From: an uncultured Thermoproteaceae archaeon
Lineage (GTDB): Archaea; Thermoproteota; Thermoprotei; Thermoproteales; Thermocladiaceae
NCBI GenBank assembly: GCA_964575955.1
Contig: CAZNTG010000006.1
Span: forward strand, 480,001-544,000
DNA length: 64,000 nucleotides
Direction of reading: 5' to 3'
Part shown: piece after piece, positions 21,532 to 23,669 of the stretch
Numbering within the stretch: position 1 is the first letter of the stretch
How the letters are laid out: each line of letters starts with the position of its first letter
Notes under the pieces: generated by a model
The model's database searches: none
Told to the model about the DNA's origin: nothing
Seen by the model: only the letters and a program-made list of their open reading frames with translations
Made by a program: the position numbers and the translations under genes

Positions 21532-22221
21532 ATGGATGTTGAAGTTGTTATTGACAGTGAAGTACATAGTCTAGGAGTATATGTACTCTATTTCACAGCT
21601 AGAGATCTAGTGCAGAAGTATGATGAAGAACTTCTAAAATATATAGATGAATGTGTTAGATATGTTAAATCTAATTTAGATATAAACAAGTTGAAAGATA
21701 GTCCGTTCATAAGACCATTTAGAGATCTCTACTGGAAATTAGGTATTGATCCAACTAAAGTTAGACCAGCTCATGAAGCATTAATTAGGAGAATATTGAG
21801 AGGATCTGAATTACCTAAAATAAACCCTGTAGTAGATTTAGGAAATGCTGTAAGTATAAGATACATGTTGCCAATCGGAATATATGATCTAGACAGGTTA
21901 GGAAGTTCTAAACTTATCTTAAGAAAAGCTAGAGATGGAGAAGAAGTAAATCTTCTAGGTTCAGAAAAACCTGTAAAACTTGACAACAGGTACATAGTCT
22001 TAGCTACAGAGAGTGGAAAGATTGTACATGTATATCCTCACAGAGATTGTCAAGAAACCTCAGTAACTGAAAATACTAAAAACATACTATGTATTGTAGG
22101 ATCTGTAAAACCAATACAGGAAAAATATGTACATCAAGCAACTAGTGAACTTAGAGATAAGATAACTACATTCTTCAAACCTCAAAAAATATCTGATATA
22201 AACATAGCGAAAGGTATATAA
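21532..22221 (+). CDS. B3/4 domain protein (PheRS-beta-like editing domain)
   Basis: LGIDPTKVRPAHEALIRR, INPVVDLGNAVS and PIGIYDLD. Confidence 0.92.
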   Translation: MDVEVVIDSEVHSLGVYVLYFTARDLVQKYDEELLKYIDECVRYVKSNLDINKLKDSPFIRPFRDLYWKLGIDPTKVRPAHEALIRRILRGSELPKINPVVDLGNAVSIRYMLPIGIYDLDRLGSSKLILRKARDGEEVNLLGSEKPVKLDNRYIVLATESGKIVHVYPHRDCQETSVTENTKNILCIVGSVKPIQEKYVHQATSELRDKITTFFKPQKISDINIAKGI

Positions 22222-22222
22222 A
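22209..22222 (+). promoter_or_regulatory. BRE/TATA promoter of the tRNA 3'-half locus
   Basis: GAAAGG-TATATAAA (TATA at 22215-22222), 31 nt before the GC-rich leader. The tRNA-Phe in this window has a comparable 28-nt spacing. Confidence 0.6.
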
Positions 22223-22253
22223 CACACCCAGAACAGATCTCTCTAGAAATAAA

Positions 22254-22311
22254 GCCGCGGACCGCCCGAAACAGACCCGCCGACCCCGGTTCGAATCCGG
22301 GCCCGGCTACC
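22254..22311 (+). tRNA. 3' half of tRNA-Gln with GC-rich 5' leader (candidate split tRNA)
   Basis: GA-CCCGC-CGAC-CCCGG-TTCGAAT-CCGGG-CCCGGCT-A gives the anticodon-stem 3' strand, T-arm and acceptor 3' strand (U72, A73, as in archaeal Gln). No D-arm upstream; instead the leader GCCGCGGACCGCCCGAAACA. Confidence 0.78.
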
Positions 22312-22337
22312 TTAACAACTTCTACCTTATGCATACC

Positions 22338-23669
22338 CTATATCGAGACTAGTATTAGCAGTATCTTGTATATTGCATATATTATTGATATCAGTAGTGT
22401 TAATCCTAAGATTCTTATGAATAGTTTAGCTGTCTCTTTTGTAAATAGTGTTGTATATGTTAAACTTGTAATTGATATATTGTATATTGTTCTAGCATAG
22501 TTTAATGCTAAACTTCTAGGCACTATTGCAACTTCAGGTATTGCTATTAGTACTATAGATAGTGTTAATCCTCCAATTCCTGTAGCTATTAGAAATAGTA
22601 TGTAGTAATTTTTCAATAACATAGATATTATTGATGCAATTAGTGTTCCAACTTCATAACCAATTTGTGATAATGCTGAAACTCTCAATGTTCCAAGTTC
22701 TGTAACATATGTTGAGTATATTGCAGTTATCAGTATAAAACCACCCATTGTACAGGTTGAAAATATGAAGTATAGTAGTGGTTGAATATATACACTACTT
22801 ATCAATATTGGTAAGCATGTTGATAATACTAAAATTACTAGAGATATTCTACATAGATTATTACTTCTCCATACTAATGATCCTACTATAGTTCCTACAG
22901 ATCCTGATATTGCTATTATTGTTGCATATATTTGAGAAGCTTTTAATATAGATTTCATATATGGTATCCATATCATATATATCAAGTTTATACAAGAGCA
23001 GAATAGTATGTAGAACAGTAGAGATGTAACTTTACCAATCTCAACTTCAAACCTTACAGTAGATATTTGAACTGTTGATATTATAGGCTTAAATTCTGCT
23101 ATTAATAATACTGAGGTTCCAATAAGACCTACAAAACCTGAAAGTAGGTATAGGTATGTATATACTATAAGATTTCCATGAAATATCCATATTGTAATTA
23201 TTGATAGTAATATTCCAATTATAGATGTTGCAGATCCTATAGCAAATCTTTTAGATACAATATCTACAATATCTCTACCTGTAAATGATGAATATATTAA
23301 GTAGTTTAGAAATATACCTACAGGAGTTGTTATGAACATTGCAATACATGCAATGCAGATTTCAACAATTTTAAAATATATGAATAATGGTAATATCATC
23401 CAGAATATTCTCTCAAGACCATGACATACTATTGTCAATATTCTCAATATGTTATGTGAAAATGTTCCTCTCTTATAGATATATACTGCATATATTGTAG
23501 ATGCTATAGCTTGTATGAGAAATATTATTGATATTAATGTTAAATTATAACCTGCATAGCTTAACATTATTATGAAGAAACTTCTAGTAATAGCAACATA
23601 GAAACCTCCAGTACCTGCCTCAACTATTAAACTCAACTTTGGACCTATACTACGCATAGATATGAGCAC
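22338..23669 (-). CDS. MFS-type membrane protein
   Basis: About 12 hydrophobic segments, GLERIFW. Confidence 0.7.
   Translation of the reverse strand: MLISMRSIGPKLSLIVEAGTGGFYVAITRSFFIIMLSYAGYNLTLISIIFLIQAIASTIYAVYIYKRGTFSHNILRILTIVCHGLERIFWMILPLFIYFKIVEICIACIAMFITTPVGIFLNYLIYSSFTGRDIVDIVSKRFAIGSATSIIGILLSIITIWIFHGNLIVYTYLYLLSGFVGLIGTSVLLIAEFKPIISTVQISTVRFEVEIGKVTSLLFYILFCSCINLIYMIWIPYMKSILKASQIYATIIAISGSVGTIVGSLVWRSNNLCRISLVILVLSTCLPILISSVYIQPLLYFIFSTCTMGGFILITAIYSTYVTELGTLRVSALSQIGYEVGTLIASIISMLLKNYYILFLIATGIGGLTLSIVLIAIPEVAIVPRSLALNYARTIYNISITSLTYTTLFTKETAKLFIRILGLTLLISIIYAIYKILLILVSI

Follow-up and report, generated by a model that had tools for sequence, protein, structure and literature searches.

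A tRNA-Gln 3'-half gene shared by two separately encoded 5' halves: a probable trans-spliced tRNA in an uncultured Thermoproteaceae archaeon

The window analysed here is a stretch of 64,000 nucleotides (C6:480001-544000) in the genome G000 of an uncultured Thermoproteaceae archaeon (1.52 Mb, 15 contigs, ~33% G+C, 94.7% complete); the data set that best matches the DNA of this genome is a hydrothermal-vent metagenome. In a gap of 116 nt between an open reading frame (ORF) with a B3_4 domain (21532-22221) and a convergent ORF (22338-23669) lies a short element composed of a leader, a linker and the 3' part of a tRNA-Gln (Table 1). We suggest, with a probability of roughly 0.88, that this element (22253-22311) is the only gene for the 3' half of a tRNA-Gln that is split and trans-spliced, and that it is shared by a CUG and a UUG 5' half encoded elsewhere in the genome. 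This reading is indicated by the half genes themselves, by their complementarity with its conservation and covariation, by the predicted promoters, by the failure to find an intact tRNA-Gln gene, and by the presence of enzymes that could cut and join the exons.

A preliminary description of this DNA had regarded the element as an orphan tRNA-Gln 3' half, and its arms are as described there; a D-arm and a 5' acceptor strand are absent nearby, and no genomic AGCCGGG occurs near the start of the 3' half (C6:502253) on the + strand. At the place of the encoded CC, the congeners discussed below read CCA, CCG or AAT. Neither ARAGORN nor Rfam calls the element, as expected because it is only half of a tRNA; both see only a tRNA-Phe in the window, and Rfam in E-value mode over 21700-22800 returned only three matches at chance level (E 1.4 to 5.4). 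The promoter-like element, which resembles a transcription factor B recognition element (BRE) with a TATA box, extends over the final codons and stop of the upstream ORF. The 3' half starts 119 kb away from the nearer contig end. Moreover, a contig from a second independent DNA run (X2, record 10, 233 nt) covers 22127-22359 with 0 differences, and this includes positions 22254-22275, where the preliminary description had asked whether the assembly was sound. Because this contig bridges the locus and five other assemblies carry the system, misassembly is excluded.

Table 1. The 3'-half gene and the two partner genes; positions are those of the window unless a contig is given.
Feature	Position	Strand	Remark
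Promoter-like BRE/TATA element AGCGAAAGGTATATAA	22206-22221	+	matrix match; predicted from sequence
Leader AGCCGCGGACCGCCCGA	22253-22269	+	17-nt strand of the trans helix; read directly
Linker AACAG	22270-22274	+	unpaired in the model; putative 3' splice site after G22274
3' exon of tRNA-Gln, A38 to discriminator A73	22275-22309	+	read directly
A38	22275	+	first exon base
Anticodon-stem 3' strand CCCGC	22276-22280	+	
Variable loop CGAC	22281-22284	+	
T-arm CCCGG-TTCGAAT-CCGGG	22285-22301	+	
Acceptor 3' strand CCCGGCT	22302-22308	+	
A73	22309	+	
Encoded C74, C75 (CC)	22310-22311	+	A76 not encoded: T at 22312
5' half, anticodon CUG	C2:14922-14992	+	trailer C2:14976-14992
5' half, anticodon UUG	C13:13368-13298	-	trailer C13:13314-13298

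The two 5' halves agree with the form that had been predicted for a partner, namely AGCCGGG at the start, then GCGGG-CT-(T/C)TG and a trailer such as GGGCGGTCCGCGGC. Both of them start with AGCCGGGTGGTGTAGCGGCCAAGCATGGCGGGCT, carry the anticodon CTG in one case and TTG in the other, and end in the trailer TCGGGCGGTCCGCGGCT, a perfect 17-nt complement of the leader. Reverse-complement 12-mers of the leader occur at three loci only in the 1.52 Mb, which are its own locus and the two 5' halves, and the complementarity is therefore beyond chance. The 5' and 3' parts lie at separate loci and cannot form one transcript. The Gln(UUG) identity proposed earlier holds in so far as a UUG 5' half exists, but CUG is split too and both use the one 3' half.

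We compared G000 with six congeners (G001, G002, G003, G004, G005 and G006), of which all but G005 are split-bearing; the split-bearing assemblies are 69-95% complete. The helix between trailer and leader is a perfect 17 bp in G000 and 15-17 bp in all 13 pairs, one of which has a single internal mismatch; in G001, G002 and G004 it is 15 bp. Its duplex energy is -17.4 kcal/mol at 85 C, and it is predicted to be stable at 85-95 C. Two of its positions have changed in a compensatory manner: at the inner end G000 has a U-A pair where G003 and G006 have G-C, and at the outer end five genomes have U-A where G006 has C-G. Co-folding without constraints returned the acceptor stem along with the trans helix, and not the cloverleaf. 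A metagenome scan with the 14-mer GCCGCGGACCGCCC gave at least 120 loci, with a median G+C of 68% among the matches listed, and a tRNA half was seen in none of 120 among those listed.

We also found signs of duplication among the 5' halves. The two of G000 (L023 and L049) are alike for ~22 nt past the trailer (AACACTTACAAATT...) and differ in their upstream regions, which suggests that one may have been duplicated from the other, from +1 to beyond the trailer. A third 5' half in G006 (L052, G006:C45, near position 93, minus strand) is a second CUG copy with a trailer change that gives an A-C mismatch; this copy may be a duplicate in decay, or else may reflect variation between strains.

No intact tRNA-Gln was found in G000 by the Rfam tRNA model or ARAGORN. 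The Rfam model gives 43 genes above the cut-off, none of them Gln, and ARAGORN adds an intron-bearing gene that we read by eye as Arg(GCG); two other intron-bearing tRNA genes were read by eye as Val(CAC) and His. One 'Gln' of ARAGORN with a 2389-nt intron was rejected, as its sequence is AT-rich and coding-like and has no Rfam match. A scan for T-arms in the same genome found 49, five of them outside tRNA genes; of these five, one is the present 3' half, another belongs to a degenerate Ala-like fragment, and the other three are not tRNA-like. A contiguous Gln gene was not found in G001-G004 or G006 either, and standard tRNA finders report the split-bearing genomes as devoid of tRNA-Gln. Of the usual crenarchaeal set, only tRNA-Ala(CGC) was otherwise not found in G000, and the T-arm scan of this genome gave no orphan half for it.

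When the exons are joined in silico (1-37 plus A38-A73 by script, with flanks and CCA added by hand), 13 of 13 pairs from the six genomes give a normal cloverleaf that ARAGORN calls tRNA-Gln (CUG or UUG). Compared with the contiguous gene of G008, a genome of the sister genus g3, the joined CUG form has one different base, in the D-loop, and over the 3' exon stretch the identity to the contiguous Gln gene there is 100%. A1-U72 is a mark of archaeal tRNA-Gln. The joined tRNA has 72% G+C against 33% in the genome, and a high tRNA G+C in a low-G+C genome fits a hyperthermophile.

Each half gene appears to have its own tRNA-type promoter, as judged with a matrix made from the upstream regions of 44 tRNA genes of G000, whose shared motif is AGAGAAAGATTTAAAA at ~46 nt before the gene. 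The promoter proposed for the 3' half in the preliminary description fits this comparison: the predicted element scores 13.0 against a tRNA median of 13.3 (better than 22 of the 44 tRNA genes) and stands 47 nt ahead of the leader, where the tRNA median is 46 nt. Sites that score as well occur about once per 31 kb. The predicted promoters of the two 5' halves score 16.9 and 15.8, at 47 and 45 nt, and exceed 35 and 32 of the 44 tRNA genes, respectively. TATA-like elements at similar spacing are also seen ahead of the 3' halves in the five congeners.

The system seems to be confined to this genus among the genomes searched. The 3' half was queried against 41 genomes, and with its leader it is present in five of the six congeners (G001, G002, G003, G004 and G006); in the 34 searched genomes of other genera the leader is covered by no match. 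Among 31 genomes of the family, matches to the 5' half that span the trailer are restricted to the same five congeners (2, 2, 3, 2 and 3 copies, respectively; one of the G003 copies is truncated by a contig end). Across the six genomes the 3' exon is 100% identical and the first 15 nt of the leader have a mean identity of 98%; the flanks have 54% (30 nt upstream) and 28% (30 nt downstream), and the histidyl-tRNA synthetase (HisRS) proteins only 63-69%.

The neighbours of the 3' half in the window encode HisRS, an A24 peptidase, ribosomal protein L10e, a DUF2192 protein and a THUMP methyltransferase. A HisRS gene stands near the 3' half on the same contig in G001, G002, G003 and G006, and this shared neighbourhood indicates vertical descent of the 3'-half locus. 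For the A24-peptidase and B3_4 genes between the 3' half and HisRS there are matches in G003 and G006; G001 has a match to the peptidase. Both G008 and G005 share only HisRS with the region of the window. In a search for related loci the B3_4 protein had only distant relatives (best 47% identity) and no synteny. The convergent ORF (22338-23669, minus strand, 443 aa) ends 27 nt beyond the 3' half and matches no Pfam family up to an E of 0.01, and the HisRS match in G009 (L076, G009:C45:8301-9569) contains one in-frame TAG.

In the sixth congener, G005, the tRNA-Gln(CUG) gene is contiguous and holds an intron of 19 nt, and the region reads CUCU-GG^A-GCGG-GGCU-CCGC-GGAG-AG^A-CCCGC (carets mark the junctions). 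By reading, this would be a canonical bulge-helix-bulge with a helix at each end (hBHBh') at 37/38. Genes of another sister genus, g5 (G010, G042 and G044), have introns of the same plan, with GG^A, CC..GG, GUAG and AA^A, so that the cis introns of tRNA-Gln in this family share one layout: GG^A, a hairpin, G(G/U)AG and A(G/A)^A CCCG. Of the 24 Gln genes compared from other genera, 20 are contiguous. The 13 complete 5' halves all show CU(C/U)U, GG^N, CC-loop-GG, GGAG and A-N, followed by the trailer; whereas the cis-intron genes are contiguous, the split form has the trailer after GGAG-A-N and the 3' exon elsewhere. As the 5' halves keep the plan of the cis intron, a 5' half would consist of the exon plus essentially the whole intron, and the 3' half supplies only the leader, 5-7 linker nucleotides and the exon. 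With the whole intron in the 5' half, the break would lie in the 3' bulge and not in the intron loop as in the split tRNAs described so far, which are depicted as a pre-tRNA cut within an intron loop (PMC4090602) and as a canonical hBHBh' followed by a stem of 13-14 bp (PMC3218864). That a mobile element gave rise to the split, its terminal inverted repeats having entered the 3' bulge, stays speculation: the 17-mer is not repeated elsewhere and mobile genes are absent beside the halves.

Two further tRNA-Gln genes of the family deserve mention. In g5 the genome G021 has a tRNA-Gln gene of 121 nt with two inserts (L042:1501-1621; G021:C26:9442-9562): after G26 comes a segment that repeats the 5' strand of the anticodon arm with CTG, and next an arm with TTG and a 37/38 intron ending in GGAGAA. 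Its fold is uninformative, and the gene may be one for UUG with two introns or one that yields both isoacceptors. In g3 the genome G008, whose CUG gene is contiguous, has a second and different split of tRNA-Gln(UUG) in L009 (G008:C3:35287-38324, at ~198-240 and 1470-1550). The 5' part ends ...GCATGGCGGG plus GGTGGGCC; the 3' part, 1.27 kb downstream on the same strand, has its own promoter and the whole anticodon arm and starts with GGCCCACCCCCGC, of which 13 nt are complementary to the 5' part. The ORF between the two parts (444-1397, minus) has only a sub-threshold LAGLIDADG_WhiA match (E 0.0079).

From these features a route to the mature tRNA can be proposed. The 3' half would be transcribed from its own promoter as leader, linker and exon (A38 to A73), and each 5'-half gene would yield the exon 1-37, the intron-like module and the 17-nt trailer. 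Trailer and leader would anneal into a G+C-rich helix of 15-17 bp through which the acceptor stem and the anticodon stem would form in trans, and the splicing endonuclease would cut after G37 in the 5' half and before A38 in the 3' half, upon which RtcB may join the exons into tRNA-Gln(CUG) or tRNA-Gln(UUG) with the one common 3' half. The 5' site is predicted to lie in a helix-bulge-helix within the 5' half, where C32-U35 would pair with GGAG, followed by a bulge G36 G37^N and the CC...GG hairpin; all 13 5' halves allow four of four standard pairs between 32-35 and GGAG and two or three closing pairs of the hairpin. The 3' site would lie one nucleotide ahead of the anticodon stem, in the linker, which is a single strand of a putative three-way junction in which the anticodon stem meets the cis helix CU(C/U)U/GGAG and the trans helix. 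This linker reads AACAG, GACAG, AAACCAC or AAACCAA in the different genomes. In archaeal splicing the cut falls after the second nucleotide of each bulge, and 37/38 appears to be the only junction that would yield the mature sequence of the family in all genomes.

The enzymes for such a reaction are encoded in G000. One EndA of 186 aa has 2zyz_B as its best solved match (2e-66), and a paralog of 174 aa matches 2zyz_A (named PAE0789; 2.9e-7); by their locus tags (PAE) we take these chains to be from Pyrobaculum aerophilum. The two paralogs thus correspond to both subunits of an (alpha-beta)2 enzyme of solved structure. RtcB is also present. Relaxed motifs are reported to be cut efficiently by only (alpha-beta)2 and epsilon2 enzymes (PMC6379350). 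The RtcB frame has 485 aa in G000, G003 and G006; the longer frames of G004 (789 aa; L083 and L086, G004:C43) and G008 (973 aa; L089 and L090, G008:C6) match in two parts, as would be expected for an intein.

Taken together, the halves may represent a structurally new type of split tRNA, in which a 37/38 intron is broken at its 3' bulge, the 5' half is the exon plus an intron module with its own helix-bulge-helix, the trans helix of 15-17 bp is inserted in the 3' bulge, and the endonuclease cuts the 3' site in a three-way junction. We hold this structural proposal tentatively, at a little less than an even chance. Several observations weigh against it or against the wider reading of a split gene. 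Transcription, joining and the structure at the splice sites we infer from the genes, and an intact Gln gene could, for G000 alone, lie in the ~5% of the genome outside the assembly. The 3' site has no 3-nt bulge beside a central helix, its junction strand being 5-7 nt long, and a 4-bp helix of positions 32-35 with the leader is impossible in any of the six genomes. No precedent for a three-way junction was found in the literature covered, to which the original tri-split paper and the supplements of PMC3218864 do not belong. Since GGAG is invariant, the central helix shows no double covariation, and its support consists of the one-sided change C34/U34 opposite G. Co-folds constrained to the cloverleaf at 37 C alternate between cis and trans pairing of the anticodon loop: in the group of G000, G003 and G006, six of seven pairs place U33-G36 on CAGA of the leader, by which the 3' site would be buried in a helix, and in four of these the cis hairpin extends over part of GGAG. 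The cis pairing of 32-35 is predicted at this temperature only for the CUG halves of G001, G002 and G004, with GGGA or GGGG, one or two nt 5' of GGAG, as the partner. The order of events is likewise uncertain, because the place of G005 within the genus differs between trees: it stands with G003 and G006 in the HisRS tree (93/90; G004 absent, G003 partial) and outside the five split-bearing genomes sampled in the best aIF5B tree (58/60; G001 absent), and the RtcB tree is a polytomy (G001, G002, G004 and G008 left out; G005 covers 41% of the columns). The synteny of the cis gene of G005 amounts to one weak neighbour match to C2:10280-10585 (44% over 102 aa).

The folds on CAGA, together with the way in which known split tRNAs are drawn (PMC3218864), are what favours a real split tRNA-Gln with a trans bulge-helix-bulge, where the anticodon loop and the leader would form the central helix, either as AAA with U33-U35 or as U33-G36 with CAGA. 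We consider this unlikely. The preliminary description had suggested the AAA pairing and noted a mismatch at position 32; this mismatch (C32-C) is found in all genomes, and the pairing itself did not survive, as it fails for CUG by an A-C34 mismatch and the leader differs in three congeners, whereas C32-U35 can pair at four of four positions with GGAG. The leaders of G001, G002 and G004 (AAACCAC or AAACCAA) are unable to form either helix, and the CAGA pairing takes in A38, so that the 3' site would fall inside a helix and not in a bulge. Such a structure would also leave the invariant GGAG and its homology to the cis introns unexplained. It is very improbable, too, that the three genes are separate small RNAs, for instance tRNA-half-like regulators that pair by the 17-nt helix and are never joined. 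The joined product is known here from gene sequences alone, which leaves room for such a reading, but the cell would then be without any tRNA for CAA and CAG codons, the exons retain every pair of the cloverleaf, and the enzymes to cut and join them are present.

That the element is an attachment-site (att) remnant or a decaying fragment of a tRNA-Gln gene, with a functional gene elsewhere, is scarcely credible. Partial tRNA duplicates are known in G000, where C10:19877-19937 (minus strand; L079:7878-7938) repeats the 3' part of tRNA-Ala(GGC) in degenerate form, and the intact gene (C10:22031-22107) lies 2.1 kb away; Csx1 is encoded upstream of this copy, a 288-aa ORF without Pfam match lies between copy and intact gene, and no integrase was seen around the copy on C10. 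For tRNA-Gln the picture is another one. The preliminary description had associated a remnant with the lack of a 5' half and with intact Gln genes, but two complementary 5' halves are present and no intact Gln gene was found in G000 or the five congeners. The exon is identical and the leader nearly so in six genomes, with compensatory changes, and the 3' half carries a predicted promoter of its own. All three half genes have housekeeping neighbours, no integrase or transposase stands beside any of them, and the 34-nt 3' exon has 0 exact matches in a collection of viral contigs.

A split trans-spliced tRNA-Gln would join a small set of genes from heat-loving archaea; a review of 2014 lists 29 split tRNA genes for 12 anticodons in seven genomes (PMC4033280). 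A close likeness is the tRNA-Glu of Nanoarchaeum equitans, in which one 3' half likewise serves two 5' halves that differ in the anticodon, with the junction at 37/38 (PMC3218864), and G+C-rich complementary trailer and leader join the halves (PMC4033280, PMC4390854); amino acid and lineage are different. In the N. equitans hybrid an intron-bearing pre-tRNA is cut in the intron loop, with the bulge-helix-bulge beside the stem (PMC4090602), whereas the present 5' half keeps the whole intron hairpin and a strand of the central helix. The preliminary description knew of no split tRNA-Gln in Thermoproteales. We likewise found none reported for this order, nor any at 37/38, in the literature searched; split tRNA-Gln as such is not new, for N. 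equitans, the one organism in which it is known, has a tRNA-Gln(UUG) of two half genes, split at 32/33 and with only UUG in the list given (PMC3218864), unlike the split at 37/38 of both isoacceptors here. As the lineages are distant, the two splits of tRNA-Gln are probably of independent origin.

Caldivirga maquilingensis, a free-living crenarchaeon of the Thermoproteales, has split and tri-split Gly, Glu and Ala tRNAs whose pieces are shared between isoacceptors, as here, and whose leaders correspond to introns of related species (PMC4390854, PMC10714607); Gln is not included in this set. The split tRNA-Asp of Aeropyrum and Thermosphaera and the split tRNA-Lys of Staphylothermus, which belong to Desulfurococcales, resemble the present case in being recent and lineage-restricted with a promoter per half, and for them, too, evidence was drawn from one compensatory change that separates two species in the trans helix (PMC3218864). 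They differ from it by their canonical hBHBh' with the 13-14 bp stem and by affecting single isoacceptors, and they are backed by reverse transcription PCR and Northern blots (PMC3218864), whereas the present case is a prediction from gene sequences. Six of the features that define split archaeal tRNAs are seen in, or predicted for, our case, which we place among them, and the position of the break arguably sets it apart from those described.

Split tRNA genes are rare, and they are central to the debate on whether tRNAs were assembled from halves or broken late. The system in this genus is useful here because both Gln isoacceptors rely on one common 3' half, and because six species-level genomes have retained it and show compensatory changes. 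Together with the conservation and the shared half, the cis intron found in the same family with an equal layout speaks for a late, intron-derived split and shows at which point the gene was broken. If such a three-way-junction substrate exists, the range known for the crenarchaeal splicing endonuclease would be wider. The family, with its cis introns, this split and a second independent UUG split in g3, would then offer a natural series on the origin of split tRNAs.

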